A program made the translations under genes and the position numbers. The notes below the pieces were generated by a model. That model was not told the DNA's origin, ran no database searches, and was given only the letters and a program-made list of their open reading frames with translations. This document shows, piece after piece, positions 2,143 to 19,033 of a stretch of 64,000 bases of DNA; the stretch's first letter is position 1, and the number at the start of each line of letters is the position of its first letter. The DNA lies in contig JAIRWT010000001.1 of the NCBI GenBank assembly GCA_031268795.1, positions 890-64,889 on the forward strand, read 5' to 3'. The stretch is from Puniceicoccales bacterium (GTDB lineage: Bacteria; Verrucomicrobiota; Verrucomicrobiia; Opitutales; JAIRLM01).

Positions 2143-2787
2143 TTAGAAAAGACTTCCCTGTTGCCGTACCTGAAGGTGATCGCGGGAAAAACTATGGTCC
2201 ATGGCTTGTTGGATAGTAAGGGGAATGGAGATCAATAGGTGTCGCAGAAGCAACGCGCACCCAATGGCATCAAAAAGTGCACAGTGGAAAGTACATCGGC
2301 CGGATGGACACATTTTGTGCGCCAATGCTAGCATTTCATCCCCAAGGGTAAGGGATTCTATCGCATCCCGCAGAGTGTGTGTTTTAAATTGCGGAAAGTA
2401 TCGGCGGCAGAGTACAAATGTGTCAATGCACGGGCCCCAGGAAAGCCCGTGGAACGGAATTATTTCCTTTGAAAAATTTGGAACAAAACCGGGCGATGGC
2501 CAGGTGTTTCGCAGCAGAGAAAGCTCAACTTGCGAATGATGCGCGGCAAAAACTCCCCTCTTCCGCAGAGACTTAAAAAGCTGAAAATATTCCTGGAATG
2601 GTTTGCCGTCGTTAATCGGCTGCATCGATTTTTGAGATCTTTTTAAAAAAAATGATGTCTCGGCTGGAATGGCACAAAATTCCGTCAGAGGGTTCATTAT
2701 TCCTTTTTGCGCGAGCTGAACGAGCCCAAACTCCCAAACGCCATCCCTGGTTGTTCCCTCGAAATCTAGGGCAAAAATTTCTGGCAT
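2143..2787 (-). CDS. DEDDh-type 3'-5' exonuclease (DnaQ/epsilon-like domain protein)
   Basis: Exo I-like FALDFEGT, Exo II-like AAHHSQVELSLL, Exo III-like HCALFDAIGCALLL (H-x4-D). Confidence 0.6.
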   Translation of the reverse strand: MPEIFALDFEGTTRDGVWEFGLVQLAQKGIMNPLTEFCAIPAETSFFLKRSQKSMQPINDGKPFQEYFQLFKSLRKRGVFAAHHSQVELSLLRNTWPSPGFVPNFSKEIIPFHGLSWGPCIDTFVLCRRYFPQFKTHTLRDAIESLTLGDEMLALAHKMCPSGRCTFHCALFDAIGCALLLRHLLISIPLTIQQAMDHSFSRDHLQVRQQGSLF

Positions 2788-2794
2788 GCCAATG

Positions 2795-2870
2795 TGGTGG
2801 AGCTGATCGGGATCGAACCGACGACCTCATCATTGCGAACGATGCGCTCTACCAACTGAGCTACAACCCC
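2795..2870 (-). tRNA. tRNA-Ala (anticodon CGC), CCA encoded
   Basis: Reverse complement is GGGGTTGTAGCTCAGTTGGTAGAGCGCATCGTTCGCAATGATGAGGTCGTCGGTTCGATCCCGATCAGCTCCACCA. It folds by hand into a cloverleaf with a 7-bp acceptor stem carrying the G3:U70 Ala identity pair, anticodon stem CATCG/TGATG, loop TTCGCAA (anticodon CGC) and T-arm GGTTCGATCC. Confidence 0.92.
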
Positions 2871-2988
2871 AAACCTCACCGCGATCTGAATGGCATTGGC
2901 CCCTTCCGTCAAGTGATTTTGGTCGGTTTTGCAGGCATGAGGAGTAATTTCCACTTTCGTTTGTGGCGCATTCATTTACAATAATGTC

Positions 2989-3840
2989 ATGGAAAATGTT
3001 CTCGTGTGCGTCGATGGTTCAACACATGCCATAAGCTGCTGTGCCCATGCACTTGCACTTGCCAAAATAGGCGGTGCCCACGTGGATGTGCTCTATGCCA
3101 GCGACATACGCTCATTTGAGTCGTGCATGGTCAATGAATTTGATTCGGACGGATACACCCCCGAGGCCGTCGGACATTTACGTGCCTTGGAAGAGTTAAA
3201 GGCCAAGCGCATCGAAAAAAATGTTCGGAATATTTTTCGAAGTGGTGATTACGGGGATCACGTGGATTTTCACCACCTACATGGATTTATTTTGGATATT
3301 ATTGGTGAATTCGCCCAAAATACACGAGGCGTTGATCTTCTTGTTGTCGGCCGGCGAGGGGAGCACTCCGGCAGTTTCAAAGAACACATTGGCAGTACAG
3401 CCGAACGCATCATCAAGGCTTCCATGATGCCCTGCCTGGTGGCGGCGGAAAAATATATGCCAATTAATTGCATAATGATTGCCTATGATGGAAGTGAACA
3501 CTCCGAAGCAGCCGTACGCAGCTTGTTAGCCCTCGGAACAATTCCGTACGGCGAAGTTCATTTGGTAACCGTCGAAGCGGAAAACGCCCCATCCCTAGAG
3601 GCGGCACACCTGGAAAAAGTTTGCCAGTCATTAGGAAATACAAACATTGAGATAATTACAGCCAGACTGAGTGGGCGGGTGGATGAGGCCATCGTTCGAT
3701 ACATTGAGGTACATTCCATCGACACGCTTGTCATGGGCGCATATGGCAGATCCGGCATTCGTCATTTTTTTGTTGGGTCTAATACGGCTAAAATTCTTGC
3801 CAGCACAGGCATAACCGCCATCGTGTGCCGCTGTTCTTGA
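2989..3840 (+). CDS. Universal stress protein, tandem Usp domains
   Basis: Two Usp-like halves: VLVCVDGSTHA...LLVVGRRGEHS...GSTAERIIKASMMPCLV and IMIAYDGSEHS...TLVMGAYGRSGIRHFFVGSNTAKIL. Confidence 0.8.
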   Translation: MENVLVCVDGSTHAISCCAHALALAKIGGAHVDVLYASDIRSFESCMVNEFDSDGYTPEAVGHLRALEELKAKRIEKNVRNIFRSGDYGDHVDFHHLHGFILDIIGEFAQNTRGVDLLVVGRRGEHSGSFKEHIGSTAERIIKASMMPCLVAAEKYMPINCIMIAYDGSEHSEAAVRSLLALGTIPYGEVHLVTVEAENAPSLEAAHLEKVCQSLGNTNIEIITARLSGRVDEAIVRYIEVHSIDTLVMGAYGRSGIRHFFVGSNTAKILASTGITAIVCRCS

Positions 3841-3918: not shown

Positions 3919-6900
3919 TTATGCACCAGCAGCACTGCCTATATAGCTGGAAACCCATGAACTGTCTTGTGTTTTTGATCCAAGGAATCCTATGAGTGCA
4001 TCACGCTGCGGTTCGTCATGGGTAATACCTAAAAATAATGTTCTGATATTTCCATCAGCATTGAGGGCCTCGACGTTAATGGTTCCATTATAAATTTGCA
4101 TATATAAAGCGAATCGCTTTAAGTCGCCCTCGCTCACATCTGCCATTGGATTATCTTCCGGCGCAAATCTGTCATCGGGCTTACCCCTTGTATCAATAAT
4201 TCGAGCATCTTTCAATGCTCCATCCATGATCATTTCTCCATAGTCATCAACCTCGCTCGGAGTTAATAGCATACCTTTCATTTTCCCGGCGGAATCCTTA
4301 TATACCAACATGCGCTGCGCACTGCGTGAATAGTTGGATGATGGATCATTTTTGCCTTCGAATGCATGCATAAACTGTTCACTTGCACAAAACTCAGACG
4401 GAAAAATATTCACACTCCTCCCGGTAAATCCGGCTGTTTGCCCCGATTGCTCCGTAAGCCATTCGTTGATGGACATAGATCCGGTGGTTGGAGTACAAGT
4501 CTTTTTTTCCACACTTTCATCCTCATCTTCCGGATCTCCAATAGCAGTTGGGCACACAACTAAAGCATCGGCCCTTTGGCCGCCAATTTGGACAAGATAT
4601 TTTTTTACATCTTGTGCCGCAGCAAGAAGCGGATCAAAAAGTGGCCCTTTGGCTATGCGTAAAACAGAAGCTAGGCCATCCACAAGAAACTTATATTCAT
4701 CGGACGCACCAGGAATATCGAACTCGGCCACAGTTTTAATAAAATCAGCAAACCCTCCAACTATGATATCGGCAAATTCCGACGCTTTTTTCATGTCATA
4801 CATTCCCGTTTTGGGGTTCCTACAACTTTCCAAAATAGCTTTTGCCAGCATTTCTTTGGCGGCCTCGCTGGCATCCGGAGGAAGAGTAAGTCTACATGCA
4901 ACCTGAAATACGGTAATCATTGCTTGCGCCTCCTGGGGAACAAAAAAATTCCCCAAAAGTTTAGCCAGATCTTTTTCAATCCACTTTAAAATTTTTTGCT
5001 TTCGCACTGCATCTAGCCGGGTAACATATTTTTTCTCTGTAATACTGCGCAACATTGTCGGGAGAAGCACAACTAGTCCTGCCAGGTCTTGCCCGCCGGA
5101 TAAGAAAGCTTGCGCAGTGCCCCCTATCAAATTGAACACTCCGCCAGCGGCGGAGGTGATACTACTAGCCTCTTGCCCATCCTCGAGATATATATTTAAA
5201 AGACCAATTATTCCATTTAATAACCCGTAGGCGTTGGATTGTACTTTCTCCAAAAGACCCCTACCCACATTTTCTGGATCGGTTTGAAGATCTTTAAATG
5301 AGGTTAATCTTTCATCGCTGGGCGTTTCTTCATCATCCGCCATGTCGGGATGATCAGCTTTCGCACTTTCGATTAATTTATCGATCGCATTTGAGCATTT
5401 TTCGAAACATCCGAAAGTTTTAGTTATCTGTTCCTTGGAATAACCCAATGCGATTGCCGCATTTATCCATGCCATTTGGGCGGATTCATCTTCGCCAAAA
5501 TAGCGGATTTTTTCTTCAGTCGGAATGCCCTGGAACCATTCCAGCACACTTTCCTTTTCCGGATTTTCATTTTCTTCAACCTCATGCTTCGGAGTCTTGA
5601 GGGTGCGGGTCACGGCTTTCGCCAGCGCATCCATTTCATTTATAATCTTTTCCGGAGGAACGCCGAAACCGAGCGCATCCTTGCGCACAGTGTCGAAAAA
5701 TTTACCTGGAACTTTTTCGGCCTCTCCTCCTGTAGTGGGTGAATCCCTTTTCGATAATGGCGTGCAACATCTTTCTCTACAGTCTGAGAAGTCATCACCG
5801 GACATCAAATTTCCCAGAAGTAAAGCCAGTTTACCTACCCTAAATGTCTCACCAACTGTAAGCTCGCCGAGAAAACCAGAAAGCAATTTCTTCATGAAAA
5901 CACCCCCCGATCTGCTTTCCACATGGCCAGCTGCCCGCCGATGTCGATCGACAAGGGAATCACCCAATGACTTTAGTGCACTGGCGGAATCGTTTTGCGA
6001 AGAAACTTCCATCTGCTGCTCGGCTTCAGTCTCGGTTTCCGCTTCCGCCTGAGTTTCCACCTCCGCGCCCACATCGACGGCCGCACCGCCAATAACCATT
6101 TTGACACCTGCTAATTGATGACTGGCGGTTTCCATGATAAATTCCGTCTCTCTCAGGAACTTTCGGGAAAGCCCACATCCCACCAAGGATGCAGCAGTTT
6201 TTTTACGCATTTCCACAATATGGCCATAAGCGTCAGCTTCATTTTTTGTCGCACCATACCAACCGACCGGATCAAAGCGTGCATCCGTGAGACATGCGTC
6301 GGCACATTCTTTTTGCAAAGCCTCGAACCTACGCAGCCAATATGATGGAACAAATGGTGAATTGCCGTGATCAATGGCCCATTTATTTTCTTTATAATAT
6401 TGTTCCTGTCTTAGCTCAAGGAGTATCCGTTTTTTTTCTATTATTTGTGCGGTGACTGCCCCAACTTTGCGAGCGTTCAACAGGCTGTCCTGATTTGCTT
6501 CAACGGACTCAAAGCACTGTAAAAATTGTGCTTCATGCTCCTCGGCACCTTCTAGCTCTGTCATTCCATCGGTCGCTTGTCCAACCTGGCAAACATCAGC
6601 CGATTGACCGTCCCAAAAACCACGTAAGCGCAATACCCCCTGAAGAAAATTGGAAATAAGCGTTTTCCCCGGATCCGCGGTTACAAGCCCGCGGCCACTT
6701 TGTGGCAACTTGAAATCCACACCGGTGGTCTTATTTTGGTCAAAATAAACAAATAACTCCTCCCGCGTTATTCCGGCCTCTTTCAGGACAGTTCCCTCCT
6801 GATTATTTGATAATTTAATCGGCGGTGAGTTTGGATCTCGCGGCATAACCCACCAATCGCTTTTTCCCGTATTTGGGTCCACTTCGAAGAATGCAAATCC

Positions 6901-9900
6901 TTTGAATGGGGAATTGCTCTTACTTGCGCAATAATCACGCGTCTGTCGTGCAACTTCGCGATTGCGAAGATGCTTGAAGGCGCCGGCGACGTCTATCAGT
7001 GCGCAAGTGGCTTGACTATCATTGCCATGGGCCTTGGCCTGCGCATCCAACATTTGCGCGACCGTACTACCATCCCCCTTTCCATTAAACACAACCGAAT
7101 TCCCCGCCTTCATGTCACTTGCCCATTTGCTACAAATTTGCATATTGGTACTTGTATCCAACATGGAGTTACCCGGACGTTGGAATCCAGCACTTAGAAT
7201 GTCAAGATTCCACGGCGTTCCCGAATCGGCGATAACCGTTTTCGTGAGGTGCATTTGATTATATCCTGTCCCCTCCAGCATGCCAGGATAGAACATGAAG
7301 TCGTCCCTAGTAAGTGCGCATACAAGGCTGCTACGGTCGGAAGTTCCTGCTCCCTTGGCAAAAATTGCTACTAACTTACTATAGGCATCTTTGATTAATT
7401 TTTCCCCTAGTTGTGGGGAAGCGGAATTTTTTAATTCCTCGGCCCGCTCGGCAAAAGTCTCCATATATAACTCTAGATATTTCCGTTCCGGCGAATCTGG
7501 CTTTTGGATGGCTTTTTGAATAAAATCTCGGAATTTTATATCCAGTGGTGTTCCATCGCCAAAATTTGGCGTGTGCGATAACATATATGCATGATTCGTA
7601 TAAACCGACAACTCAATCGGATGGGCATAATCTCCAGAAGAAGGTGTATTCGCACTAGAATAGGGCACAACTTTAACCAGTTTTCCCTCAATTATGCGAA
7701 ACCCGTAATTCCCCAAATACGATTTTCGAGAAGCGTAGCGTTCCGTGGTAATCAGTCCTCGCAGCATGCAAAGTCTTTCCAGCAATTCTGGATTTTCACC
7801 AGCAAGCCTAGCCCTCGCCAGGTCCCATTGCACGCGAAACTCTGCATCATCCTTGGCCCGATTTGCGTCAGGCGCATCGTCGCAGCAAATAAATCTCCTA
7901 TATAGCTCTCTGTTCGCATCATCGGCGGGAATTCCAAAGTCATCCAACATGCCCATGGCAATGTGGCTAAGCGAATCTTCGCTGATGCCTGTACCGCTGC
8001 GTATGGCGCTTTTAATTTCGTCATTGCCATCGATGCGTTGGAAAAATCTGCTGTTGCATTCCGCTTGTACCGAAGAAAATGTCTGCCTTTTGCCATTCGG
8101 AATATTTACACTAAAAGTTGGATCCAAATTGGCATGCACCTCATCACAGATCATTACACAATTTTCTTTGATGAAGCCCAGTACCTCTTCAAATTTATTA
8201 AGCCTCTCCTCGAGTTTCCTTATTTTTCCACGTATGCCGATACGATCATCCTTGCTAATGCCCGGTTCGTCACGCGCGATACGTGCGTCCCGCAAGCCAA
8301 TGATCGCGCTACGTCGCTCAAGACTGATTCCTCGTAGTAATGTACTTGGAATAGTAACACATGCGCCAGTTTCTTTGGCGCGTTTGAGTTGACTTAAAAT
8401 ATTATTAGCACCAGCCAATGTGGCCAAGCCACTTAGCGGCATATTAATTTCGATAACCGCTTGGCCAAAACGCACTTCCTGGAGTTTGCGCAAGTCTTTG
8501 GTCATTGTTGCATGCTGTGCTTCGTGGTTGGCGAAAAAGGGAATTTTCCCCGCACCAGCCAATAATCGGGCCAGTTCAGAGAGAACTATCGCCGTTTTCC
8601 CTCCGCCCATCATCAATTGAAATACGAGTTGAACCTCTTCCTGAGTAGCAATCCCGCGCTTAGATTTTTCAAATATATCACTAATTAATTTCACCTGATC
8701 CGGACGCAAGCGAAATTCCGTTTGCGCCTCAAACCACAGGGTGGAGAAATTCCTGCGATCAAAGGCATCATAGGCACGTGCCGCGGCCATGGACTTGATA
8801 AATGCGCCAAAGGATTCCCTGACGGCCAGTATCTTTCCCCGGGTATCGCTCTTTAACCCCTCAATATCCCTGCCAATTGAGGTGGAAAGCGTCTCAATCG
8901 CCGGAAAAAATAATTCCCCATCCGATGCTTCTTGAATGTCGTCAGGATTTAATTCTAAGTCCTGCAATAAACTTGCATTTTGCGTCCTCAATGTAGCAAA
9001 GTGTATCCTATAAGTTTCGATTTCCGAACGAGCATTGCGTATTGTCGCAGCGAATTCATTTGCTTTAGTGTGATAACTTTCAGTGCTCACGTCCATTATC
9101 CTGGTTAATTCGGCTCTTTCCGCTTGTAGAGTTTCAAATTCTTTAATCAATTCGACACTAGCGAGTTTCATAGCATCTAACTCACGCGCAGACTCACGTA
9201 ATTTCGCAAGTTCGAATCTTACCTGCTTGTATGTTATCCTGCCAACACCAAGCATATTAAGAGCGCCCCGAAACATGTTATCTGCAGGCATAATATCGCC
9301 ATCCTCAAGAATGGCGGTGTCCCCGTGGGCCGCTCTCTTCGATACCAATGCGGCTGCAATCTTATCTTCACATGCTTTGATTCCTGATTGCACTTTTTCA
9401 AGGTTTTCACTTTCCACGCATTCAAAAGATTCGGATGGACCTCCCCTGGAAACAATAAATCCTTTGCTCATCATTTCGCGAATGGACTTTTCATTTTTCT
9501 GTAATGTCCTTTCATTTATTTGAAGTTGCGCTTCGATCTCTTGCCGTTCGGCTTGACAGTTTCTTGCAAGGCTATCCTGTTCAGCAACGGCCGTGCGACA
9601 GGCCTTTTCATGGATGCAATAGCTTGTGCTTATGGTTCGCGCCTGTGATATGATGTTCTGCTTTGCCTTAAGTTCGGTAAGTTTAGCAAGTCGACTTTCC
9701 GCGGATTCTGTAGTTGGTGGAGCAATGAGAAGTTGTATTTTCGCTTTGAAATCTTCAAAAGTCCTTAGCCGATTTCTGCATGCACTTAAAGCCGTTTTAC
9801 AGACAAGTTGATCTAGTAAGGCATCAATAAGATCGTCAACTTGTCGCGCGGTAATATATGGATCAAATTCCCTCGCATAGGCCCTCCAAAAAGCATCCCG

Positions 9901-12900
9901 ATCAAAGCAGTTGTCCGTAGAATTATAGCATCTAAACAAAAGCATTTGCAACTTCTCACTTGTCGGCATGGGAAGTGCGCCACTTATTCGCAAAAGTTTC
10001 ACCTGCGGGGTAACACTTAGAAGAATATTTTCTATTATCTCATTTGCTTTGTCAAGTACGCTGGATATGCTTCTTTCATCGGACTTCAAAGATTCTTCCG
10101 CCGCGAATAAATCACTTCGTAATGTTTCCGCTTCTGCGTCGGCAATTGCAAATGTATCCGGGTTTGTAGCATCGATGCCAACAAAGCGCTTGCCAATGGC
10201 ATCCCAGCAAGCATCCGCGTGCGCCGCCGCTGCGGCCGCCTCTCCCCTGCGATATGCACCCAGCCTGCCGGCCAAATCCGTCGAAGCTTCTTCTTCGGCT
10301 GCGGATTCTGCTATACTTGCATCCGCCGGCCTGGTTGCTTCGGTAATTCCCAATCTTTCAAGCGCACTTGCTCCGGCGCTGGCAACGTCAATGGGGTTAT
10401 CCGGATCGCTTGGGTTGCTAAACCGTTCCATACGCACATCCACACCAAGTTGTTTTCGGCTCGAATCTTGCTGCGACGGAATTCTGCCAGCCCTAAGTTG
10501 GCCAGGCGATATCCTTTGCCGTCTGCTTCTTTTGGGCACCTTAGGCAAATGGGCTCTTATATCTTCCGTTGTTTTGGCCGCTTTTTTGGCATTAAGGCGT
10601 TGTTGTTCCTTTTTCCGGAAAAGACTGACTGTAGAGTTGTGTATCCAGCCTGTTGTTTCACTGGTATAATGGGTGCTGGCAATATTCAAAAATTCAATAA
10701 AATCGTTTAAAACTGGCGATTCTGGATTTTCAAATTGCACAGACTTATAAGCATCGATAAAAAGTGTTGCCGCCTGGGAGTGATAAGTGCTAGCATCATC
10801 GGTGAAAAAATCTTTAAACGAGGCATGGTATTGACCTCCACCGGCCGAATTACGCCACATCGGCGCAACTGCACTTGGATACACTAGAGCCATATCAAGA
10901 ATAAGCTCATTTAACAAGCTCCTCGCACCAGGGGCGATATCCATATGTATGGTAGACGCACACCACCCCAGCACAGTATGAACTCGGCCCTTAAGGGCTT
11001 CGCGATCGTCTTGGCCGTAAAGTCTATTCGGGTCTCCGCCTCGTGCCGCTCTGGCATTTCGAAAATATGTTATAAGTGAACGGATGCGATTCTTGCTGTA
11101 TGGGCCAGAAAAAAAATCATCTTTTGAATCGGTTGCATTGGGAGCAATCAAGTCACCGAGCCTAATAACCTCTTGTTCATCGCATGACGCATTTCCTTCC
11201 GAATCCACACGCCCAAAAATGATATCATCGTCTTCTTTTTCCGGTAATGTAATCGTTACGGGCACTTGCTCGCACCGAGGGGAGAATAATGCACTCGGTC
11301 TTCCAGGTAATGTTAATTCTAATGGCTTTTTATCTGAGGCAATGATGAAACCTCCATCACCAGCATTGGCCGCATATCCCGAAAGAATATTTTGAGACAT
11401 CAGGAAGCAATCCGTTTTTTCCCCATCCGAATACAGTTCCAAGCGCCTTTTCCCGGCATCTCCACTTTGTCGAAAGGAAATTCGACATGGGGCCTTTCCT
11501 TTTTCTAGAATGACACGATTAAGCACAACAGCCTCTACGGGTATGCCATCGGCGTTCCGCCCAATTAGGCACTCAGATGGCAAGTCTTTGCATTGTGTGC
11601 CTTGTCCATTTAGTACTAACTCCATTTCCGGATTTTTTGCAGAATAAAACTTCCCGTCTCTCATCAAAAATGCCGGTTCTCTAAAGTTGGCACTAGTATA
11701 GAAGCGGATGACATTATCTTTGTCCAGAAACGCAACAAAGTTACGCTTAAGGTCGTTAAGTGCGGTCGGCTCCCCGACAACGCAAGCGCCTTCGCCAAGA
11801 ATAAACGAATATCTCATAAATTCGCCAGCGTCAGCGTGCGTTGCCTTGCCGGTAACAAGGTCAACGGTTACCTTTCCGTCGATGCATTGAGTTTGCTGAT
11901 TTGGAAATTCCGATCGCCGATTCAATGATAGTGCTATATTTGGTGTTATTTTATCGAGTTGCATCATGAGTGGCGGTAATTGCTTGGATTCAACCGGGAG
12001 TGCACCTTCGCAAAGAAAAACTCCATTGTCGGCGTTAAGTTCTAAACGAAGACCACCGCCAAATGCTGTTTGCATATCGTCCGGCGTAATAAATTCCGCT
12101 GGAGTTTCAATTGCGGAAATAGACTCGATTACACTGATTGGAATAAGCGAATTTTCGCTACCATAGTAACATCGAAAATTGCAATTCTGAATAGGATCGA
12201 ATTTTGCATTAGGAGCCTGCACGCTTCTTGTATTATGGACTTTTTGGCAAAATCCATAACGCGGATTTGCCGTGAGTAAGGCGATGTTTTTGCGCTCTCC
12301 TTCAGAGAGGTGCATACCTTTTCTTTCTTTTAAAGCCGCAATTTGCACCACCATTGCTATTTCGTTGGGATCAATGTTGGCACAGTGGTTCCAACTCCCA
12401 ACAATGGCATCGTTAATCGAACAAAGGCTGTCCGACAAATCCGGTAAATCATCTGCGTCGTTGGCCAGAAGAAGTTCGGTAAGGGCTCGAAGTTGATTTT
12501 TTTTGCTCGCATTCGCTTGGTCTGCTTGCAGATCGTTTGCCAAAGTGTCAGCAAACGCGGCAAGCTTGGCTAGTACAGTTACTTTTGCCTCTGGGGCAAT
12601 TTTAGTAATTACTGCCCGCATATATTGCATGGCTTTTGGGTTGGTGGCATAAGTCGAAAACTCATCTATAATGGCATCGGCAAATAGCGCCATATTTTCA
12701 TTACGCACATACTGCATGAACCTCATGTCCGGACAGTTTTTGATGGCATATTGTTGTTCGCTACCTTTTGGAGATTCTTGTTCATCAAAGAATTTATCAA
12801 TTTCCGCAAAGTCAACATCTGCGCTCGAGCTAACGTCAACGTTGCCAACAGCAAGTTTGCTGAGTTCCTCACGAACACCAGGTTGCTCTGCCGCATTTAT

Positions 12901-13872
12901 GCTCGCGATAAAAATAGAAGATAATCTTTTGAAGAAATCAAAGGTTTCTTTATCCTCAGCAGCTGAACATGATAGGCATACATTCAAAAAGCCAATAAGT
13001 ACTTCCCGATCCTCCGGCGGCACATTTGCATGTTCGCCCGATATATCGTCCACTTCCGTGCCAAACATGTCTTGAATTTTTTCCTGAAGCTCACTAGGAT
13101 TTAACAAATCAGGCGCTTTGCAACCATGCGCCGCGAAAAAGCTGGAAATAATCCCTTTCGTATGGCCGATTGTTTTGCCGGTAATCGGCAGTCTGCCAAT
13201 TGCAGACGGATTTCCTGCATATATGCGAAAAAATTTCATCAATTGTAATTGAGGTGGTGTATCGACAAAGTCTGCAGATAGTAACTCCTTTGGTACGAGA
13301 ATTGGCTTTTCATTGCCTGCCGCAAGAACTCCGGGAGCAGGATGCAGCATTTGGCTCTTCAAATGGGCCGCTAAACTGCGAAGATCCGGATCGCTGGGTA
13401 CGCTTGGTGCACTAATTTGCGTATGCTCAGCAACATTGGTCGTTTTAACCGTTGGCCGCTCTCTTACTATCCTGTCGTGTATGCCTTCAAAGGCATCGGT
13501 TGCTGCTTTCGCAAAAAGTGTCAACTGTCTTATTTCTATTCTTTTGAAGAAAATACTATAAAAAAATGAAAAAATCGGATTTTGCTTCCCTCGTACGGCC
13601 GCAGCGGATGCAGCGATTTCCTGCCGTGCATTTTTTATAAGCTTTCTGCTTGCATCCTCGTACTTGGAGAGCTCACTCTTATCTACCGTTTCTAATGTGC
13701 TGGCAAAATCTTTTACCGAACTTGTCATTTTAGAAACCGCAGCGCGATAGGCGTGAATTAATTTCAATCCCGTCACGCCGCTTTCTGACACATCTCGTAA
13801 TTGTTGGACCTCTTTTTTCACAGCAAACAGTGCAGCTTCATACGATCCTGTACGTGATCCGGTAGCATCCAT
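3919..13872 (-). CDS. Giant 3,317-aa protein with a central P-loop/DEVH NTPase (helicase-like) core; function unknown
   Basis: One uninterrupted 9,954-nt ORF. Walker A QLMMGGGKTAIV (GGGKT = nt 8593-8607). Walker B/DExH-like MICDEVHANLDP (DEVH = nt 8134-8145), about 150 aa downstream. Coiled-coil-looking E/K/R/L/Q-rich region at about nt 8800-10000. Acidic AE/TE tract at about nt 6005-6075. Antisense ORFs are short and low-complexity. Confidence 0.85.
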   Translation of the reverse strand: MDATGSRTGSYEAALFAVKKEVQQLRDVSESGVTGLKLIHAYRAAVSKMTSSVKDFASTLETVDKSELSKYEDASRKLIKNARQEIAASAAAVRGKQNPIFSFFYSIFFKRIEIRQLTLFAKAATDAFEGIHDRIVRERPTVKTTNVAEHTQISAPSVPSDPDLRSLAAHLKSQMLHPAPGVLAAGNEKPILVPKELLSADFVDTPPQLQLMKFFRIYAGNPSAIGRLPITGKTIGHTKGIISSFFAAHGCKAPDLLNPSELQEKIQDMFGTEVDDISGEHANVPPEDREVLIGFLNVCLSCSAAEDKETFDFFKRLSSIFIASINAAEQPGVREELSKLAVGNVDVSSSADVDFAEIDKFFDEQESPKGSEQQYAIKNCPDMRFMQYVRNENMALFADAIIDEFSTYATNPKAMQYMRAVITKIAPEAKVTVLAKLAAFADTLANDLQADQANASKKNQLRALTELLLANDADDLPDLSDSLCSINDAIVGSWNHCANIDPNEIAMVVQIAALKERKGMHLSEGERKNIALLTANPRYGFCQKVHNTRSVQAPNAKFDPIQNCNFRCYYGSENSLIPISVIESISAIETPAEFITPDDMQTAFGGGLRLELNADNGVFLCEGALPVESKQLPPLMMQLDKITPNIALSLNRRSEFPNQQTQCIDGKVTVDLVTGKATHADAGEFMRYSFILGEGACVVGEPTALNDLKRNFVAFLDKDNVIRFYTSANFREPAFLMRDGKFYSAKNPEMELVLNGQGTQCKDLPSECLIGRNADGIPVEAVVLNRVILEKGKAPCRISFRQSGDAGKRRLELYSDGEKTDCFLMSQNILSGYAANAGDGGFIIASDKKPLELTLPGRPSALFSPRCEQVPVTITLPEKEDDDIIFGRVDSEGNASCDEQEVIRLGDLIAPNATDSKDDFFSGPYSKNRIRSLITYFRNARAARGGDPNRLYGQDDREALKGRVHTVLGWCASTIHMDIAPGARSLLNELILDMALVYPSAVAPMWRNSAGGGQYHASFKDFFTDDASTYHSQAATLFIDAYKSVQFENPESPVLNDFIEFLNIASTHYTSETTGWIHNSTVSLFRKKEQQRLNAKKAAKTTEDIRAHLPKVPKRSRRQRISPGQLRAGRIPSQQDSSRKQLGVDVRMERFSNPSDPDNPIDVASAGASALERLGITEATRPADASIAESAAEEEASTDLAGRLGAYRRGEAAAAAAHADACWDAIGKRFVGIDATNPDTFAIADAEAETLRSDLFAAEESLKSDERSISSVLDKANEIIENILLSVTPQVKLLRISGALPMPTSEKLQMLLFRCYNSTDNCFDRDAFWRAYAREFDPYITARQVDDLIDALLDQLVCKTALSACRNRLRTFEDFKAKIQLLIAPPTTESAESRLAKLTELKAKQNIISQARTISTSYCIHEKACRTAVAEQDSLARNCQAERQEIEAQLQINERTLQKNEKSIREMMSKGFIVSRGGPSESFECVESENLEKVQSGIKACEDKIAAALVSKRAAHGDTAILEDGDIMPADNMFRGALNMLGVGRITYKQVRFELAKLRESARELDAMKLASVELIKEFETLQAERAELTRIMDVSTESYHTKANEFAATIRNARSEIETYRIHFATLRTQNASLLQDLELNPDDIQEASDGELFFPAIETLSTSIGRDIEGLKSDTRGKILAVRESFGAFIKSMAAARAYDAFDRRNFSTLWFEAQTEFRLRPDQVKLISDIFEKSKRGIATQEEVQLVFQLMMGGGKTAIVLSELARLLAGAGKIPFFANHEAQHATMTKDLRKLQEVRFGQAVIEINMPLSGLATLAGANNILSQLKRAKETGACVTIPSTLLRGISLERRSAIIGLRDARIARDEPGISKDDRIGIRGKIRKLEERLNKFEEVLGFIKENCVMICDEVHANLDPTFSVNIPNGKRQTFSSVQAECNSRFFQRIDGNDEIKSAIRSGTGISEDSLSHIAMGMLDDFGIPADDANRELYRRFICCDDAPDANRAKDDAEFRVQWDLARARLAGENPELLERLCMLRGLITTERYASRKSYLGNYGFRIIEGKLVKVVPYSSANTPSSGDYAHPIELSVYTNHAYMLSHTPNFGDGTPLDIKFRDFIQKAIQKPDSPERKYLELYMETFAERAEELKNSASPQLGEKLIKDAYSKLVAIFAKGAGTSDRSSLVCALTRDDFMFYPGMLEGTGYNQMHLTKTVIADSGTPWNLDILSAGFQRPGNSMLDTSTNMQICSKWASDMKAGNSVVFNGKGDGSTVAQMLDAQAKAHGNDSQATCALIDVAGAFKHLRNREVARQTRDYCASKSNSPFKGFAFFEVDPNTGKSDWWVMPRDPNSPPIKLSNNQEGTVLKEAGITREELFVYFDQNKTTGVDFKLPQSGRGLVTADPGKTLISNFLQGVLRLRGFWDGQSADVCQVGQATDGMTELEGAEEHEAQFLQCFESVEANQDSLLNARKVGAVTAQIIEKKRILLELRQEQYYKENKWAIDHGNSPFVPSYWLRRFEALQKECADACLTDARFDPVGWYGATKNEADAYGHIVEMRKKTAASLVGCGLSRKFLRETEFIMETASHQLAGVKMVIGGAAVDVGAEVETQAEAETETEAEQQMEVSSQNDSASALKSLGDSLVDRHRRAAGHVESRSGGVFMKKLLSGFLGELTVGETFRVGKLALLLGNLMSGDDFSDCRERCCTPLSKRDSPTTGGEAEKVPGKFFDTVRKDALGFGVPPEKIINEMDALAKAVTRTLKTPKHEVEENENPEKESVLEWFQGIPTEEKIRYFGEDESAQMAWINAAIALGYSKEQITKTFGCFEKCSNAIDKLIESAKADHPDMADDEETPSDERLTSFKDLQTDPENVGRGLLEKVQSNAYGLLNGIIGLLNIYLEDGQEASSITSAAGGVFNLIGGTAQAFLSGGQDLAGLVVLLPTMLRSITEKKYVTRLDAVRKQKILKWIEKDLAKLLGNFFVPQEAQAMITVFQVACRLTLPPDASEAAKEMLAKAILESCRNPKTGMYDMKKASEFADIIVGGFADFIKTVAEFDIPGASDEYKFLVDGLASVLRIAKGPLFDPLLAAAQDVKKYLVQIGGQRADALVVCPTAIGDPEDEDESVEKKTCTPTTGSMSINEWLTEQSGQTAGFTGRSVNIFPSEFCASEQFMHAFEGKNDPSSNYSRSAQRMLVYKDSAGKMKGMLLTPSEVDDYGEMIMDGALKDARIIDTRGKPDDRFAPEDNPMADVSEGDLKRFALYMQIYNGTINVEALNADGNIRTLFLGITHDEPQRDALIGFLGSKTQDSSWVSSYIGSAAGA

Positions 13873-14014: not shown

Positions 14015-14563
14015 TCAACCAACATACCAATAACTTGCATTAATTTCAAAGGAATCAATGGAGCCTTCAAGGCCCACGTAGGAAGTTGACAGATAAATTG
14101 GAATTGTCCGCGAAAAAAGGCTAAATAAGGATGTATCGAGAACGATGTGACCGGCGGGTAATTTGAAGGACAGAAGAATTTCACCATTTGGATATGAACC
14201 CTCCTGGAAACTGAGATTGAGAGCGTAGGTATCAACGTCTCGATAAACTTGCGCCGGATTAATTTGAAAAAATGTGCCGATGGATGTGGTCCGGTCAATG
14301 GATTCATAGGCTAACAGTGGATAATTGACTAATCGCTCCACCGGTTTCGTGTCACAGTTGGCCGTATAGGCATTGGCATAGGTACCGAATCCACCAATGG
14401 AGTATGAATAGCTGATGGATAGGGATCGCAGCATCCAAAAAATGGTGGCGATCTCCTGCGGACTCATATCTGGAAGAAGCTCTTCACCGATAGCCGGTTG
14501 CGTGGGAATTGGGTGCGGCAATCCGGATGGATTGACGGCGACGAGGAAAGAATCGGCATTCAT
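14015..14563 (-). CDS. Phage tail-associated hypothetical protein (182 aa)
   Basis: Last ORF of the block. Its ATG overlaps the upstream stop (ATGA at 14560-14563). No motif recognised. Confidence 0.55.
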   Translation of the reverse strand: MNADSFLVAVNPSGLPHPIPTQPAIGEELLPDMSPQEIATIFWMLRSLSISYSYSIGGFGTYANAYTANCDTKPVERLVNYPLLAYESIDRTTSIGTFFQINPAQVYRDVDTYALNLSFQEGSYPNGEILLSFKLPAGHIVLDTSLFSLFSRTIPIYLSTSYVGLEGSIDSFEINASYWYVG

Positions 14564-16320
14564 AATTCATCCCCGCTCAACGCGTAGGGTTGAGAGGCCA
14601 GAATTAGCCGTTTTTTTAAAATTCCATTTTCGCAGACATCCTCTTCGCGCACCCGAAGGACAAGCCCGGTGAGACCGATTTGGCGTGCATCCAAAACAAT
14701 TTGGCGCGTGCCATCCATTACGTCGGCGAGGAGCAAATGGCTGTAGGTCGTTGTCCCGGTGTGCGTGTTTTCTCCGGGCGTCTCCCGCGCCTGTTCAATA
14801 TGCTCATCGGACCCTTCCCCATTTGTACGAATATACGTGGATCTCGGCGCCTCTCGCCGCCGATTAACGCGGCTGAGTTGAATTAAATCTTTCATGCCCA
14901 AATGCTTTGCCGAGCCGAAGCGCAGGCGCACGGTGCCACTGTCCAAATGCTCGATGCACTCCTGAATTTGTGCATCCATGGTTCCCCATAAAATATTTCC
15001 TCCGGTGAGATTTAGCCGCACGCCCATTGGCACGGATGCAATCTCTTCACCTAAAAGTTGCAAAGTTCCCTCAAAGGTTAGATTGCTAAAACTTTCATAA
15101 ATTGCCCGCGCTAAGCCGATTGGGCTCTCCTCCGCGTCGGTAAAGCTGGAAAGTCGTGCATAGGTCTGACTAGTAGCATCGGTGGCTTTAATTTTCACAG
15201 CCACCGTCTGCTGGGCCACGCCGGTTGCGCCATCTTCATATGCCAGTGTTGCTCGTACAACATCCGACTCAACGGCAACACTCATCCAATCGGCAACGCC
15301 GCCGCTGCGCAATTCCCGCGGTAGCGCGGAGTCTCGACCATGGGAAAGAATGGTGATGGCACTCGGATCCAATGTAGCCAGGGCAGGCAAATGCCCTTGC
15401 CACCAGGAGGCATTTCCTGGGTCAACCTCATCTGCCACAATGGATTGGGAAACATACTGACTCCTGGTGCCGGCAAGTTCCACGGTAAGTACGAGGATTT
15501 GTGGTTGCAATTCGGAAATATTCGTCGGATAGCGGTCCGTTTCAAGGGTTCTCCACGTGCGCCCGCTAACGGAATGCACCCGTTCGTATTTTATGGCAAC
15601 GCCACGCAGCATAAGGTCGTAGCGCGGTGAGATGGAAATGGAATTGAGCGAAGAATCCACCGCGTAGACAAGCGACGGCATGTCTCGGCGTCGTGCAATG
15701 TGCAAGGTTGGTGAAGTCGTTCCGTAATCAAACCAAATTATTGCATCCGGGATCCACCGCAGAATGCGTTGAATGGCCTCGGCACAGCTCAAATCCTTGC
15801 ATTCGTCAAAGGGCACCGTTTGTGGGAAATTTATTTCTCCAATGCAAATGGGAACCGCACAGATCAGGGCATAATTAAAAATGTCCATCAATTGATTGCC
15901 GATGCTAAGGACCTCCCCCTCCTCCGACTGCCCAAGAATGATGTGGCTTTTGTATACGCTGGTTATGGGCGAGTTGGGATCATTTGGGTCGGCGGCAATG
16001 GCCCACGGTTGTTGATAAATAGTTGTTTCCAAGTACCACCAAGGTCCGCTTACCTTATAGTACTTGGATTCATCGGAACCATCACCAAAGGACGGAACTT
16101 CCGTTACTACACCATGGAACCACCGCGATCCATCGCAATATACCTGAATTGGGGCGAGTGGTGCAAAAATGGGCCCATCGGTAAGCGCTTCCGGAGCAGT
16201 GTGGCGAAAAGTTAGCACATCACGCCCCTGATTAATCCGATGGCGGCGGGTATCGCCAATTCCCCACCGGGCAAATGTTTGTGTAACTCCATCATAGGTC
16301 AGTGTCCATTCCATGGTCAT
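14560..16320 (-). CDS. Phage tail hub / distal-tail-like protein (586 aa)
   Basis: Assigned by position after the fibre and by size. The N-terminus MEWTLTYDGVTQTF...RDVLTFRH and a central ...CAEAIQRILRWIPDAIIWFDY resemble gpD/hub-type tail proteins. The call is positional and weak. Confidence 0.5.
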   Translation of the reverse strand: MTMEWTLTYDGVTQTFARWGIGDTRRHRINQGRDVLTFRHTAPEALTDGPIFAPLAPIQVYCDGSRWFHGVVTEVPSFGDGSDESKYYKVSGPWWYLETTIYQQPWAIAADPNDPNSPITSVYKSHIILGQSEEGEVLSIGNQLMDIFNYALICAVPICIGEINFPQTVPFDECKDLSCAEAIQRILRWIPDAIIWFDYGTTSPTLHIARRRDMPSLVYAVDSSLNSISISPRYDLMLRGVAIKYERVHSVSGRTWRTLETDRYPTNISELQPQILVLTVELAGTRSQYVSQSIVADEVDPGNASWWQGHLPALATLDPSAITILSHGRDSALPRELRSGGVADWMSVAVESDVVRATLAYEDGATGVAQQTVAVKIKATDATSQTYARLSSFTDAEESPIGLARAIYESFSNLTFEGTLQLLGEEIASVPMGVRLNLTGGNILWGTMDAQIQECIEHLDSGTVRLRFGSAKHLGMKDLIQLSRVNRRREAPRSTYIRTNGEGSDEHIEQARETPGENTHTGTTTYSHLLLADVMDGTRQIVLDARQIGLTGLVLRVREEDVCENGILKKRLILASQPYALSGDEL

Positions 16321-16448
16321 GCCTCACTGCGCAGGGATTGAATCTGTAATTCCAATTCACCGATCTTTGTTTCCAATTCTTCTAGGCGTCGTACAAGTTC
16401 AGATAATAGTTCCGATTGCTCCATCGGGAGGGAAATGATTGCTTCCAT
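16317..16448 (-). CDS. Small coiled-coil ORF (43 aa), absent from the supplied ORF track
   Basis: Hand translation: MEAIISLPMEQSELLSELVRRLEELETKIGELELQIQSLRSEA*. Its TGA overlaps the ATG of the 586-aa ORF (ATGA at 16317-16320). It starts 9 nt after the fibre stop. Confidence 0.4.
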   Translation of the reverse strand: MEAIISLPMEQSELLSELVRRLEELETKIGELELQIQSLRSEA

Positions 16449-16457
16449 AAAATTTCC

Positions 16458-18125
16458 TTACCAGAGTGGGACGGTGAATCCGTAAAATACTCGAAAAAGA
16501 GCCGATGGGGAATCGGCGGTGGCCGTGCGTGTAAGTAGGGCGGAGTGGATGGTTGGGGATGTCACATCCGATTTAGTTGGCGTCGAAGGAAATGCCGTTG
16601 GTGTGGATTCGTTTGCCGCATAAGAGCATGCGGGCGTTGCCAAAAATTGCAGAGGAAAAATAATATCCTGAATCACAATTTGGCCTTGCAAAACCGCACC
16701 TCTGAATGTTGCAAAAATACGTTGGTATCGATCACCAAGTGCCCGTTGATCCTCCGCGAGAGTTGTCATAACAAATGGTTGTTCCGAAGCCCCCGGGCCG
16801 ATGGCCGGCCGATAAATGTAAAATCCATAATCATCGGGAATTGCAGACCCGCTAGCGTAGGGGGTGTGTATGAGGCGTAGACAGATTTGAACCATATTTT
16901 CCGGAACCTGAAAAGTAAAAGAGTAGCGCTGATAAACATCCGCGGGGATGTCGTAAATTGCATCCGCCGTATGGATTATACTGCTTTGTACCACAAAGTT
17001 ACCACCGTTATTAATCTTAGTAAAAACGATGGATTGGCTGGTTCCGGTAACGGAAAATTTGATGCCATTGGGCGCCGGGCCGGGAAATCCTACGCCAGCT
17101 TTTAGATCCAATGAAAATGTAACTTCTTTGCCTCGCAGTGGATAAGTTTCCAATGGCGTAAATGGGCGAAAGATGCGTATTTCCTGCGTGGACGTGTTAC
17201 CGACGGGCCGGGCTACATGCATGCAATTTAGGCCTAATGCATTTTCAACCATTTCAATGGTGCTAATCAGCGGATGGGAGGCATCAGCGATCTGCTGATA
17301 GCCTACCCAACCGTCGGAAAGTGGAATCATGGTGAGGTTTGCGAAAATCGCCAATGTCCCGTTGGTATTCAGACGAAATGCTCCATTACCAAGATGATTC
17401 GAAGATCCTCCACCGATGGGAATGTCGGCGATGGCTGCGTCCACATAGGTTTTCACGCTCCATTGGGTTGGAACATCAACGACGGAGTCCGATGCCATGT
17501 CTCCCTCATTGAGAACACCATAAAGCGAAGCCACTCCAAGCCGCAGATTGTCCCGCGCTACGGCAACATTCGATAGATCCAGCAGGTTTTGATTGCGTTT
17601 TACAAAGAGGGCATCGCATTGATCGCGATTATAGAAATGAGCCTCCGGTTCCGGCGGTATGTTGTCGATGCCACCGGAAGATTCGCGAATTGAAATCCTT
17701 CCTGCGCAGAGGGTTATTATCTTCGCCGTGTTATCCGCGGTTTCCGCCCAAATAACCAGCCAGGCATCCATAGCGGCTATGGACGATTCATCGGCGGTAA
17801 ACGTGACAACCGCCTGCTGTTGTGTTCCATTTTCCCAAGTTTCTTCGCTAACGCTGTCGTCGAAACTGATCGAATCCGCTTCTCCACGCATAAGAGGTAA
17901 AACAGATACATCGGGAGCCGTATCTTCCGGTCCCATTGGTTTGATGTCCAAAATGATACGCGCAATGTTATCCAATGTTTGGAGTTTTCTACGGTTGAAA
18001 ACGGCCAGTTGAAATTGTAAATCATTGCCTTTCCAAAAGATGGGCGTGCGTCCGGTGCGCACGTCCCGCGGTGCGTCAAAATTGCTAACATCGCAGGCAA
18101 TGCGGATGGTTGCGATTGTGGCCAT
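16458..18125 (-). CDS. Phage tail fibre / receptor-binding protein
   Basis: NQNLLDLSNVAVARDNLRLGVAS matches the recurrent tail-fibre motif (NLSDL..A.AR.NLGLG). The C-terminal half is beta-rich. ATG at 18125 is preferred over GTG at 18131. Confidence 0.6.
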   Translation of the reverse strand: MATIATIRIACDVSNFDAPRDVRTGRTPIFWKGNDLQFQLAVFNRRKLQTLDNIARIILDIKPMGPEDTAPDVSVLPLMRGEADSISFDDSVSEETWENGTQQQAVVTFTADESSIAAMDAWLVIWAETADNTAKIITLCAGRISIRESSGGIDNIPPEPEAHFYNRDQCDALFVKRNQNLLDLSNVAVARDNLRLGVASLYGVLNEGDMASDSVVDVPTQWSVKTYVDAAIADIPIGGGSSNHLGNGAFRLNTNGTLAIFANLTMIPLSDGWVGYQQIADASHPLISTIEMVENALGLNCMHVARPVGNTSTQEIRIFRPFTPLETYPLRGKEVTFSLDLKAGVGFPGPAPNGIKFSVTGTSQSIVFTKINNGGNFVVQSSIIHTADAIYDIPADVYQRYSFTFQVPENMVQICLRLIHTPYASGSAIPDDYGFYIYRPAIGPGASEQPFVMTTLAEDQRALGDRYQRIFATFRGAVLQGQIVIQDIIFPLQFLATPACSYAANESTPTAFPSTPTKSDVTSPTIHSALLTRTATADSPSALFRVFYGFTVPLW

Positions 18126-18127
18126 AA

Positions 18128-18538
18128 TCACTGCTCCTCCTGAGGTATAGCAATGAGCGCGCCACCAACAATTTCATAGTGATGTACAGTCGCAATGCCT
18201 TCCTGTGATCCGCGAATGCGGCGCATGGTACTATCGCCCAGGATATAGGACGGAGGCGAATCCCCCTCACCGACGATGCGGAAATTCCCAATCGCACCGG
18301 TAAGAATGGCCGCATGTGTAAGCAGAAATTCGGAACTTCGTTCCACGGATGCATGTTTCCGTCGCAGCGAAAATTGCAAATTCGTGGTTCGATTTTTGCG
18401 ATCAATGGGCTTTGCCACCGCAGCCCGCAGGGCCGTGGCAATTTGAACGATTCCTGCCGTTTCCAAAATGAGGTCAAACGGTTCCTCATCAGCGTCTTGT
18501 CCGCCAGCCAGGCAGTAGTTACCGATGAAAAATTTCAT
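18128..18538 (-). CDS. Phage neck/tail structural protein (136 aa)
   Basis: Assigned by position between the connector genes and the fibre. A 3-nt gap separates it from the upstream ORF. No motif recognised. Confidence 0.45.
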   Translation of the reverse strand: MKFFIGNYCLAGGQDADEEPFDLILETAGIVQIATALRAAVAKPIDRKNRTTNLQFSLRRKHASVERSSEFLLTHAAILTGAIGNFRIVGEGDSPPSYILGDSTMRRIRGSQEGIATVHHYEIVGGALIAIPQEEQ

Positions 18539-18541
18539 AAA

Positions 18542-19018
18542 TTATTTCTCCTTTCCACCGTTCCAGGGGAACGGCATTTCAAATTCGAAGGTGAGTAAAA
18601 TTTCCATTCGCATATCCGTGGTAAAACTTTCATTTATTTTCCACGGTTCCTTAAGTTTCGGCATCAATGCGCCGGCCGTTGGACCACACTGAATCCGCCG
18701 ACCGGTAAGCAGGGAATGAATAAATTCGGCAACGCCCAAGGCGCCGCCCGTCGCTACATCACTAAAAGCATTTTCTACCACGAGAATGCGCACATTTATA
18801 ATAGCATCGCATGGAACCGGCCAATTTTGGCGAAACTCAACTGGTATCGGCGGAAGGACAATCACGCAAAGGTTGGTTTGCTGATGCACGTTAATATCTA
18901 GTACTCCCCGCGTATCACTGTGATGATAAAGAAAGACACTCATTCCCGATAACTCCTGGCGATCGCGTAATATTCCAAAAATAACTTCCTGGAGCTCTTC
19001 TAAGTTGCTGTTAATCAT
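18542..19018 (-). CDS. Phage head-tail adaptor/completion-like protein (158 aa)
   Basis: Assigned by position downstream of the capsid/connector genes. Tightly spaced with its neighbours. Confidence 0.45.
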   Translation of the reverse strand: MINSNLEELQEVIFGILRDRQELSGMSVFLYHHSDTRGVLDINVHQQTNLCVIVLPPIPVEFRQNWPVPCDAIINVRILVVENAFSDVATGGALGVAEFIHSLLTGRRIQCGPTAGALMPKLKEPWKINESFTTDMRMEILLTFEFEMPFPWNGGKEK

Positions 19019-19033
19019 GGCCTTAACTCCATT

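Follow-up and report, generated by a model that had tools for sequence, protein, structure and literature searches.

A giant protein from a Puniceicoccales bacterium is a divergent member of the DUF3638/DUF3645 family with a predicted SF2-like ATPase core

The present analysis concerns a stretch of 64,000 nucleotides from a Puniceicoccales bacterium (contig JAIRWT010000001.1, positions 890 to 64,889; referred to as the window) and, within it, one giant gene. According to the listing of open reading frames (ORFs) and the translation of the window, this gene is a single ORF with an ATG start which occupies positions 3919..13872 of the minus strand and encodes a protein of 3,317 amino acids (aa). 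An initial annotation, made from the letters alone, had already described it as a single ORF of this length and had given no strand. Throughout, the window protein is designated P0001 and its relatives P0002 onward, while the prefix q denotes residue numbering of P0001. By our own calculation the chance of 3,317 codons free of any stop amounts to (61/64)^3317, that is about e^-159; therefore, such a run does not arise by chance. Full-length orthologues are present in three other genomes, all of them Puniceicoccales (Verrucomicrobiota) metagenome-assembled genomes (MAGs). The first, P0002, aligns with 99% of the query and is 42% identical to it as determined by BLAST (46% in the MAFFT alignment), the second, P0003, is collinear over q97-3308 in phmmer, and the third, at locus L005, aligns over q12-3307 at 36% identity. 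Since all three are collinear over the full length, a frameshift artefact or an assembly chimera, the latter having been raised as a possibility in the initial annotation, is very unlikely, and we regard it as practically certain that the ORF represents a real and intact gene. It is a chromosomal gene of a Puniceicoccales bacterium: the close relatives of the giant protein all bear the NCBI label “Puniceicoccales bacterium”, and the housekeeping proteins of the window find counterparts of 60-83% identity on Puniceicoccales MAG contigs. The isolate names of these MAGs may be sample codes from termite guts. A Kyte-Doolittle scan over 19-residue windows revealed neither a transmembrane helix nor a classical signal peptide, the latter in agreement with the first inspection. 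As no such window reaches the threshold of 1.6 (the maximum mean being 1.39), the protein is presumably soluble.

The conserved centre of P0001 had initially been described as a helicase- or translocase-like P-loop module on the basis of a Walker A motif followed, some 150 residues later, by the tetrapeptide DEVH. The two motifs are indeed separated by 151 residues (K1759 to D1910). G1758, K1759, D1910 and E1911 do not vary in any of the alignments, which range from 14 to 71 sequences, while T1760 is strictly conserved in the subfamily alignment of 14 and near-invariant in those of larger size. The histidine of DEVH, however, is not a feature of the family as the orthologues read DEVD at this position and DExD is the consensus of the family. 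When 35-71 diverse sequences are compared, the positions found to be invariant or near-invariant comprise Q1726, G1757/G1758/K1759/T1760, D1910/E1911, G2057, P2070 and P2077, of which the two prolines show no variation at all among the 14 subfamily sequences and hardly any in the family as a whole. In the second RecA-like lobe, G2218, T2219, D2294, D2386, Q2411, R2415, R2417 and Q2423 are conserved to the same degree. By their positions, these stretches would correspond to the motifs Q (Q1726), I (GGGKT), II (DE), III (SGT 2217-2219), V (TGVD 2383-2386) and VI (QGVLRLR 2411-2417) of the superfamily 2 (SF2) motors.

An AlphaFold2 (AF2) model of aa 1656-2599, calculated from a 35-sequence alignment, reaches a predicted local distance difference test score (pLDDT) of 88.9 and a predicted TM-score (pTM) of 0.86. 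Along the chain, this model shows lobe 1 (about aa 1705-1930), a helical insert, a beta-hairpin, a second helical region, lobe 2 (about aa 2197-2429), a helix of 53 residues and a helical bundle, with the VVPYSSANTPSSGDYAHPIEL motif starting in the beta-hairpin between the lobes. Foldseek confirms two tandem RecA-like lobes and yields matches to SecA, DinG/XPD, RIG-I and ISWI at probabilities of 0.9-1.0, so that together with the SF2-type motifs the initial view of a helicase- or translocase-like module is upheld. Among solved structures, SecA (5e-5), DdmD, DinG/XPD, RIG-I/LGP2 and ISWI are matched at E-values from 5e-5 to 1e-2 with TM-scores of 0.36 or less. In common with these motors and with SNF2 proteins, the window protein possesses two RecA-like lobes and equivalents of the motifs I, II, III, V and VI, and it shares with SecA a large insert as well as a long helix following lobe 2. 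Yet, its core is only 8-12% identical to the solved SF2 motors and it is a member of none of their families. Sequence searches of the PDB retrieved no entry, be it with the single protein, with the core profile or with the full-length profile, and none of the curated Pfam models DEAD, Helicase_C, SNF2, ResIII and SecA matches P0001. Since profiles find no PDB entry and the TM-scores to solved SF2 structures are low, the core constitutes a branch of its own among SF2-like motors, lacking a solved relative; for the latter reason, the class of substrate, nucleic acid or protein, is not readable from the fold. Much closer matches are obtained in BFVD, where seven proteins named DUF3638 or “ubiquitinyl hydrolase 1” are found at E-values of 3e-22 to 7e-16 and TM-scores of 0.47-0.55. 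The second of these names, carried by giant-virus relatives, is an automatic UniProt label which could not be substantiated. A presumed link of DUF3638 to the VTD deubiquitinase family was dropped as PMC9741609 mentions none.

The only Pfam family matched by P0001 is PF12340 (DUF3638). Its paralogues P0004 (40.8 bits) and P0017 (60.9 bits) score above the cut-off of this family, and DUF3638 is matched in all 14 closest relatives (E 0.01 or better, best 4e-15). ResIII is weakly matched in six of these 14 (best 2e-4), and no other Pfam family recurs among them. An exhaustive HMMER search of cluster representatives with a two-sequence profile of aa 1656-2599 retrieved 860 relatives of the core at E<1e-3, of which 281 remain at E<1e-10. 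Almost all 860 representatives comprise 2,000-5,650 aa, with the matching module located at about residues 1,800-2,800. The most informative comparison is that of alignment A3 with the fungal protein P0168 of Plenodomus lindquistii, a DUF6606+DUF3638+DUF3645 protein of about 3,100 aa: hhalign aligns P0001 aa 1698-2428 with fungal aa 2044-2718, a range spanning both the DUF3638 and the DUF3645 domain, over 631 columns at 98.9% probability and an E-value of 1.7e-17. Both proteins are similar in overall size and carry the motor about two thirds along the chain, and Walker A/B, the PY..P..(D/E)(F/Y)(A/S)HP hairpin motif and lobe 2 fall into register. Within this alignment, VVPYSSANTPSSGDYAHPIEL is placed opposite the fungal DUF3645 stretch LAVPYRYKDGPSARAEFSHPDVL (fungal aa 2386-2420). 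More distant members of the family carry PF12340 together with PF12359 (DUF3645) and the fungal one, in addition, DUF6606 (PF20255), which has no Pfam match in P0001. Several paralogues are already named “DUF3638 domain-containing protein” by NCBI, whereas the orthologue group of the window protein is termed “hypothetical protein”. The window protein is, hence, a divergent member of the Pfam-catalogued but functionally uncharacterised DUF3638/DUF3645 family, and that it belongs there as an SF2-like ATPase we consider very probable.

Outside the core, the protein is a mosaic of lineage-specific and family-wide segments (Table 1). The first 1,250 residues, in which the initial annotation had recognised no motif, match nothing in Pfam, NCBIfam, PHROGs or the PDB; according to phmmer and alignments they are common, in parts, to the Puniceicoccales clade only. 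A comparison by hhalign of the Puniceicoccales N-terminus with its chlamydial and fungal counterparts gave no significant similarity apart from a hint below threshold around the IDGKVTVDLVTGKA motif (E 0.04 and E 18), and no relation is detectable to the DUF3638 proteins of Chlamydiota, Legionellales, Berkiella or giant viruses. The basic linker at aa 1087-1140 resembles, by eye only, a bipartite nuclear localisation signal; its basic cluster around IRAHLP is kept in the alignment with P0002 and, as judged by eye, in P0003. The adjoining pre-core helical domain is conserved beyond the subfamily: q1157-1377 matches several paralogues in phmmer, and from aa 1253 onwards hhalign relates it to the chlamydial group (85% probability, E 6e-6). 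About 400 residues of coiled-coil-looking sequence had initially been described in front of the core, and judged by composition only, helix-prone stretches free of proline and glycine are indeed present at aa 1239-1470 and 1545-1642. The coiled-coil-like insert at aa 1381-1690 is absent from P0004-P0006, in which q1377 joins q1673, and is rich in insertions and deletions between P0001 and P0002.

On the C-terminal side, the acidic tract noted at first sight lies just behind the core, and tracts of the ExxxExxxxxxxE type recur at this place in the consensus sequences of alignments A3, A4 and A5. Of the variable region which follows, the segment from aa ~2948 on is common to P0004-P0006 and P0009 only. 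The protein ends in a conserved C-terminal domain (CTD) of about 180 aa which iterated hidden Markov model (HMM) searches detect in 149 of the 172 family proteins compared and which hhalign relates to its chlamydial version at 96.9% probability (E 1.4e-10). It remains undetected in the eukaryote-type proteins among these 172. Conversely, a “mid-N” domain found by the same approach in 121 of the 172 (chlamydial, other bacterial and fungal, the fungal one at E 6e-23) is not detectable in P0001-P0014. Hence, compared to the fungal proteins, the window protein lacks both DUF6606 and a detectable mid-N domain but possesses the CTD. With the bacterial members from Chlamydiota, Legionellales and Berkiella it has the pre-core domain, the acidic tract and the CTD in common, while the members from Klosneuvirinae giant viruses (Hokovirus, Fadolivirus, Harvfovirus, Hyperionvirus) resemble it in the fold of the core (TM 0.5-0.55, E to 3e-22). 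Several chlamydial members feature C-terminal hydrophobic segments and, by eye, long C-terminal repeats, neither of which is present in the window protein. Judged from these comparisons, the Puniceicoccales proteins form a clade within the family which is devoid of DUF6606 and mid-N and has an N-terminus of its own.

Two further observations on the relatives were made. Near the N-terminus of several among the chlamydial proteins P0016-P0031, a pattern GHAMYYQF … QRSGxC is seen by eye which recalls a His/Cys protease and is absent from the window protein. The chains of P0002-P0006, P0009, P0011 and P0013 end in Ala-Ala (PAMAA, VSIAA, FAPAA, KDAAA, PQVAA, LGEAA, PLRAA, FLRAA), while that of the window protein ends in SAAGA (window 3922-3936) and no other examined ORF of the window ends in -AA. 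The -AA terminus of the paralogues could be a degron-like or export-related tag.

Table 1. Features of the giant gene and of the adjoining phage-like head module, in window coordinates.
Feature	Residues of P0001	Window position	Strand	Basis or remark
Whole giant gene, ATG to stop		3919..13872	-	ORF listing; orthologues P0002, P0003, L005 full-length
N-terminal region	1-1250	10123..13872	-	Puniceicoccales-subfamily-specific; no assignable domain
Subfamily-conserved N-domain	367-830	11383..12774	-	NPRYGF and IDGKVTVDLVTGKA blocks; phmmer to P0004-P0006, P0014; alignments A3, A8
Basic low-complexity linker	1087-1140	10453..10614	-	Sequence (KKAAK...KVPKRSRRQR)
Pre-core helical domain	1251-1380 (shared stretch to ~1413)	9733..10122	-	Conserved beyond subfamily
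Variable coiled-coil-like insert	1381-1690	8803..9732	-	Pro/Gly-poor; 50% A/E/L/K/Q/R
Predicted SF2-like ATPase core (RecA1, helical/hairpin insert, RecA2, long helix, helical bundle)	1691-2599	6076..8802	-	AF2, Foldseek, hhalign, profile search
RecA-like lobe 1 (DUF3638 region)	~1705-1935	8068..8760	-	PF12340 aa 1710-1810; model strands at core positions 92-271
Walker A / motif I QLMMGGGKTAIV	1752-1763 (K1759)	8584..8619	-	Translation and alignments
Walker B / motif II MICDEVHANLDP	1907-1918 (D1910/E1911)	8119..8154	-	Translation and alignments
Candidate DUF3645-equivalent motif VVPYSSANTPSSGDYAHPIEL		7609..7671	-	Aligns with fungal DUF3645 stretch; hairpin strands at core positions 401-418
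RecA-like lobe 2	~2195-2430	6583..7290	-	Model strands at core positions 542-774
Motif III-like DSGTPWN		7207-7230	-	Lobe 2
Motif V-like TTGVDFK		6709-6729	-	Lobe 2
Motif VI-like LQGVLRLRGF		6616-6645	-	Lobe 2
Acidic alternating E-x tract AEVETQAEAETETEAEQQ	2603-2620	6013..6066	-	Position conserved family-wide
Variable C-terminal linker region	2631-3128	4489..5982	-	No database match
Conserved C-terminal domain (CTD)	3129-3308	3949..4488	-	NDPSS...LVY...YMQIYNG motifs
TerL		23199-24674	-	Phage head module
Mu-type portal		21956-23152	-	Phage head module
Head protease		21066-21995	-	Phage head module
Cement protein		20579-21016	-	Phage head module
Major head protein		19539-20513	-	Phage head module
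Six ORFs (187, 158, 136, 557, 586, 182 aa)		14015-19597	-	No family match

The taxonomic distribution of the family was followed in a pattern-seeded scan of GTDB with one genome per species. Among the 79 loci retrieved, about 21 reside in Puniceicoccales MAGs, about 33 in Chlamydiota including Simkania negevensis, Parachlamydiaceae and Waddliaceae, and about 20 in Legionellales, Candidatus Berkiella, Francisellaceae and other Gammaproteobacteria MAGs. Full-length orthologues of P0001 occur, among these 79, in Puniceicoccales MAGs only, and several carrier genomes harbour two to four copies of the family gene. The family is also present in fungi and in Klosneuvirinae giant viruses, and members have been reported from microsporidia and Tetrahymena (PMC5423893, PMC12615304). 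The survey of homologues which the initial annotation had proposed leads to intracellular bacteria, giant viruses and eukaryotes, and the orthologues lie in non-phage contexts. In our judgement, the joint occurrence in fungi, protists, giant viruses and intracellular bacteria is typical of genes that have passed between protists and the bacteria and viruses living within them. On two contigs catalogued as viral, L082 and L083 (IMG/VR 3300044510_000141 and 3300044954_000225), a relative of the core with 26% identity is part of an ORF whose length is at least 2,756 aa; these contigs may derive from giant viruses or be bacterial DNA filed in the wrong place.

Verrucomicrobia of the “Nucleococcus cluster” have been described as endosymbionts which inhabit the nucleus or cytoplasm of protists, among them flagellates of the termite gut (PMC8204192). 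In the window, an 836-aa protein (45411-47921, minus strand) exhibits a C-terminal eukaryote-type USP/UCH ubiquitin hydrolase domain (Pfam UCH, 2.5e-26) and is likely a host-directed deubiquitinase. A leucine-rich repeat (LRR) protein is encoded as well: a 1,046-aa LRR ORF (55446-58586) and an overlapping 426-aa ORF (58415-59695), on the plus strand, match one and the same LRR/phosphatase-like gene for 1,356 aa (L001 56-4126) at 54-56% identity. The window gene is therefore split between two frames, whether by a frameshift, as a pseudogene or by a sequencing error. Since it encodes both a eukaryote-type USP/UCH deubiquitinase and an LRR protein, the window bacterium is presumably host-associated.

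Taken together, we favour, with a probability of roughly 60%, the reading that P0001 is an SF2-like motor of the DUF3638/DUF3645 type which most likely is delivered to the host protist and exerts its action on or within that cell as a eukaryote-like factor. ATP would be bound and hydrolysed at the interface of the RecA-like lobes whose movement would bring about translocation along, or remodelling of, a macromolecule, either a nucleic acid or a polypeptide. Targeting or partner binding would be the task of the N-terminal ~1,250 aa peculiar to this lineage and of the family-wide CTD, and the host protist cell would be the site of action. The latter is suggested by the distribution of the family, the expansion of paralogues and the co-occurrence with eukaryote-like proteins; for a host-directed function as such, we consider the chances evenly balanced. 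The initial annotation had offered, as one of two hypotheses, a eukaryote-directed effector built like the giant P-loop proteins of the DUF3638/DUF3645 type. The family part of this proposal has stood, given the Pfam match, its presence in the 14 closest relatives, the fungal profile match, the giant-virus folds and the distribution, while the effector part is a plausible suggestion, with no secretion signal or system tied to the protein. A bolder version, which we consider rather doubtful, would regard the bacterial DUF3638/DUF3645 proteins as an undescribed class of giant ATP-driven effector motors, shared or exchanged between intracellular bacteria (Puniceicoccales protist symbionts, Chlamydiota, Legionellales), giant viruses and eukaryotic hosts. 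The Puniceicoccales protein with its own N-terminus and its stretch resembling a nuclear localisation signal would then be brought into the host, perhaps as far as the nucleus, in which relatives of these symbionts reside; there its SecA/SNF2-like motor would remodel a host nucleoprotein or protein complex.

Several points weigh against the preferred reading of a delivered motor. With 23 bits (E 5.6e-5, aa 1710-1810), P0001 falls short of the gathering cut-off of PF12340, which is 31 bits, and it gives no direct Pfam match to PF12359. The TM-scores to solved SF2 structures do not exceed the 0.36 given above, and a paper of 2025 still calls function and mechanism of DUF3638 undefined (PMC12615304). 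The taxon distribution, derived from the pattern-seeded scan and from the best 150 matches listed, may be biased because the scan depends on its seed patterns. Neither a type III nor a type IV secretion system is seen within the 64 kb, and the type II secretion system of the window is an unlikely route since the giant protein has no signal peptide. Finally, the gene is situated 142 nt downstream of a phage-like head module on the same strand.

The main competitor, to which we assign a clearly lower probability, is a motor operating inside the bacterium on its own DNA or RNA or on invading DNA, with a helicase or defence role comparable to that of DdmD, DinG or Druantia DruE; in that case, the association of the family with eukaryotes would stem from gene exchange within a shared niche rather than from the place where the protein acts. 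DdmD and DinG/CasDinG indeed rank among the best matches to solved structures, there is no recognisable secretion signal, and the gene adjoins phage-derived DNA. PADLOC, however, gives no match for the giant protein or its upstream neighbours, and the neighbourhoods differ in all four orthologous loci so that no conserved partner gene emerges, both of which weaken a role in internal defence. Furthermore, Pfam reveals no nuclease or other defence domain in the protein and its 14 relatives. The occurrence of the family in fungi and giant viruses, and the fact that the bacterial carriers in the scan belong to intracellular lineages, also speak against it.

More remote is the possibility that the gene belongs to the adjoining phage-like DNA and encodes a virion or ejection protein of a Mu-like, tail-poor phage or of an element resembling a gene transfer agent (GTA), analogous to the N4 virion RNA polymerase, to DarB or to polyvalent proteins, as the other hypothesis of the initial annotation had it for a phage or conjugative element. 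The giant gene follows TerL, portal, protease, cement protein, major capsid protein and six ORFs without family match, all on the same strand, and this adjacency is the strongest argument for a phage protein; besides, giant internal proteins are known in podoviruses. No integrase, tape-measure or recognisable tail genes and no att repeat were found in the module (14015-24674), which may represent the remains of a prophage, but also a tail-poor phage or an element of the GTA type. The lack of recognisable tape-measure and tail genes counts in favour of this reading. Yet, PHROGs contains no match for the giant protein, none of 50,697 phage records and 72,556 plasmids matches the core in tblastn, and in the viral structure library Foldseek matches tailed-phage proteins to the core only as generic SF2 folds (E 1e-4 or weaker). 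To polyvalent, DarB-like and N4 proteins the likeness is confined to giant size and, in the case of DarB, to an SF2 module. The methylase, MuF, peptidase and ADP-ribosyltransferase (ART) domains for which the initial annotation had suggested looking, as well as an RNA polymerase domain, are absent over the full length in Pfam and NCBIfam, as they are from the 14 relatives.

The setting of the gene points in the same direction, the flanks being made up of ordinary chromosomal genes. On its 3' side, MraY, sigma-54, tRNA-Ala(CGC) and a tandem Usp protein are encoded, and no att-like direct repeat links this tRNA to the phage-like region. Further along the 5' side, beyond the module, follow the type II secretion proteins GspE/GspF, AccA, TyrRS, MiaA, an M3 oligopeptidase, MgtE, MnmG, a Mur ligase, SHMT and TolC/HlyD-like proteins. 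None of 81 related loci shows a homologue of any phage-module protein of the window within 10 kb. When 24 window neighbours, among them every protein of the phage module, were queried against these loci, no nearby homologue was detected except for the LRR gene, which lies beside the giant gene in L001 and L003 but 41 kb away from it in the window; of the other window ORFs, only isolated housekeeping matches occur near Puniceicoccales relatives. The three orthologues reside between MutS and enolase, between the LRR/phosphatase-like gene and a Mur ligase, and near an M3 peptidase, the latter being the L005 orthologue with the M3 oligopeptidase gene ~7.5 kb downstream. A promoter-like site in the last ~30 nt of the ORF upstream of the giant gene, although weak evidence, suggests that the gene may be transcribed separately from the phage module. 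Given that phage, plasmid and PHROGs matches are missing, that the orthologues are found in non-phage contexts and that there is no att repeat, we conclude that the adjacency of the phage module is coincidental or at most due to a rearrangement, which leaves a virion protein highly improbable. The ORF represents no new type of element and does not belong to the prophage next to it.

A surface adhesin or toxin exported by type I secretion is just as improbable: the size would fit, many giant bacterial ORFs being of this kind, TolC-like and HlyD-like genes are present at 60297-62915 and the paralogues have a conserved C-terminal end in common, but RTX, Ig-like or other tandem repeats, a signal peptide and transmembrane segments are all missing, and at its conserved centre the protein carries an ATPase of cytosolic type whose catalytic residues are intact.

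Some other features of the window deserve mention. Besides the TolC-like and HlyD-like genes, its only secretion-related genes are those for GspE/GspF (26176-28781) and a pseudopilin with an N-terminal methylation motif (53380-54111). A weak PHROG match (6.7e-4) relates a 214-aa ORF next to tRNA-Ala (2143-2787, minus strand) to an exonuclease subunit of a DNA polymerase. Three ORFs of 654, 547 and 680 aa (33929-35893, 42737-44380 and 49261-51303) have no Pfam match; possibly, they encode further lineage-specific or host-directed proteins.

Proteins of the DUF3638/DUF3645 type rank among the largest in chlamydiae, Legionella-like bacteria, giant viruses and fungi, and a search of one literature library for DUF3638, DUF3645, DUF6606 and the respective accessions yielded no study of their function, structure or mechanism. 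The present analysis predicts from sequence and model that this family constitutes an SF2-like motor with intact catalytic residues. It also reveals the pre-core domain, acidic tract and CTD which the bacterial members have in common, and the clade of verrucomicrobial symbionts in which the N-terminus has been replaced. The results define concrete constructs and point mutants for the DUF3638/DUF3645 motor. Should the protein truly act in host cells, an ATP-driven remodeller would be added to the effector repertoire, and the family would exemplify how protists share genes with their bacteria and viruses.

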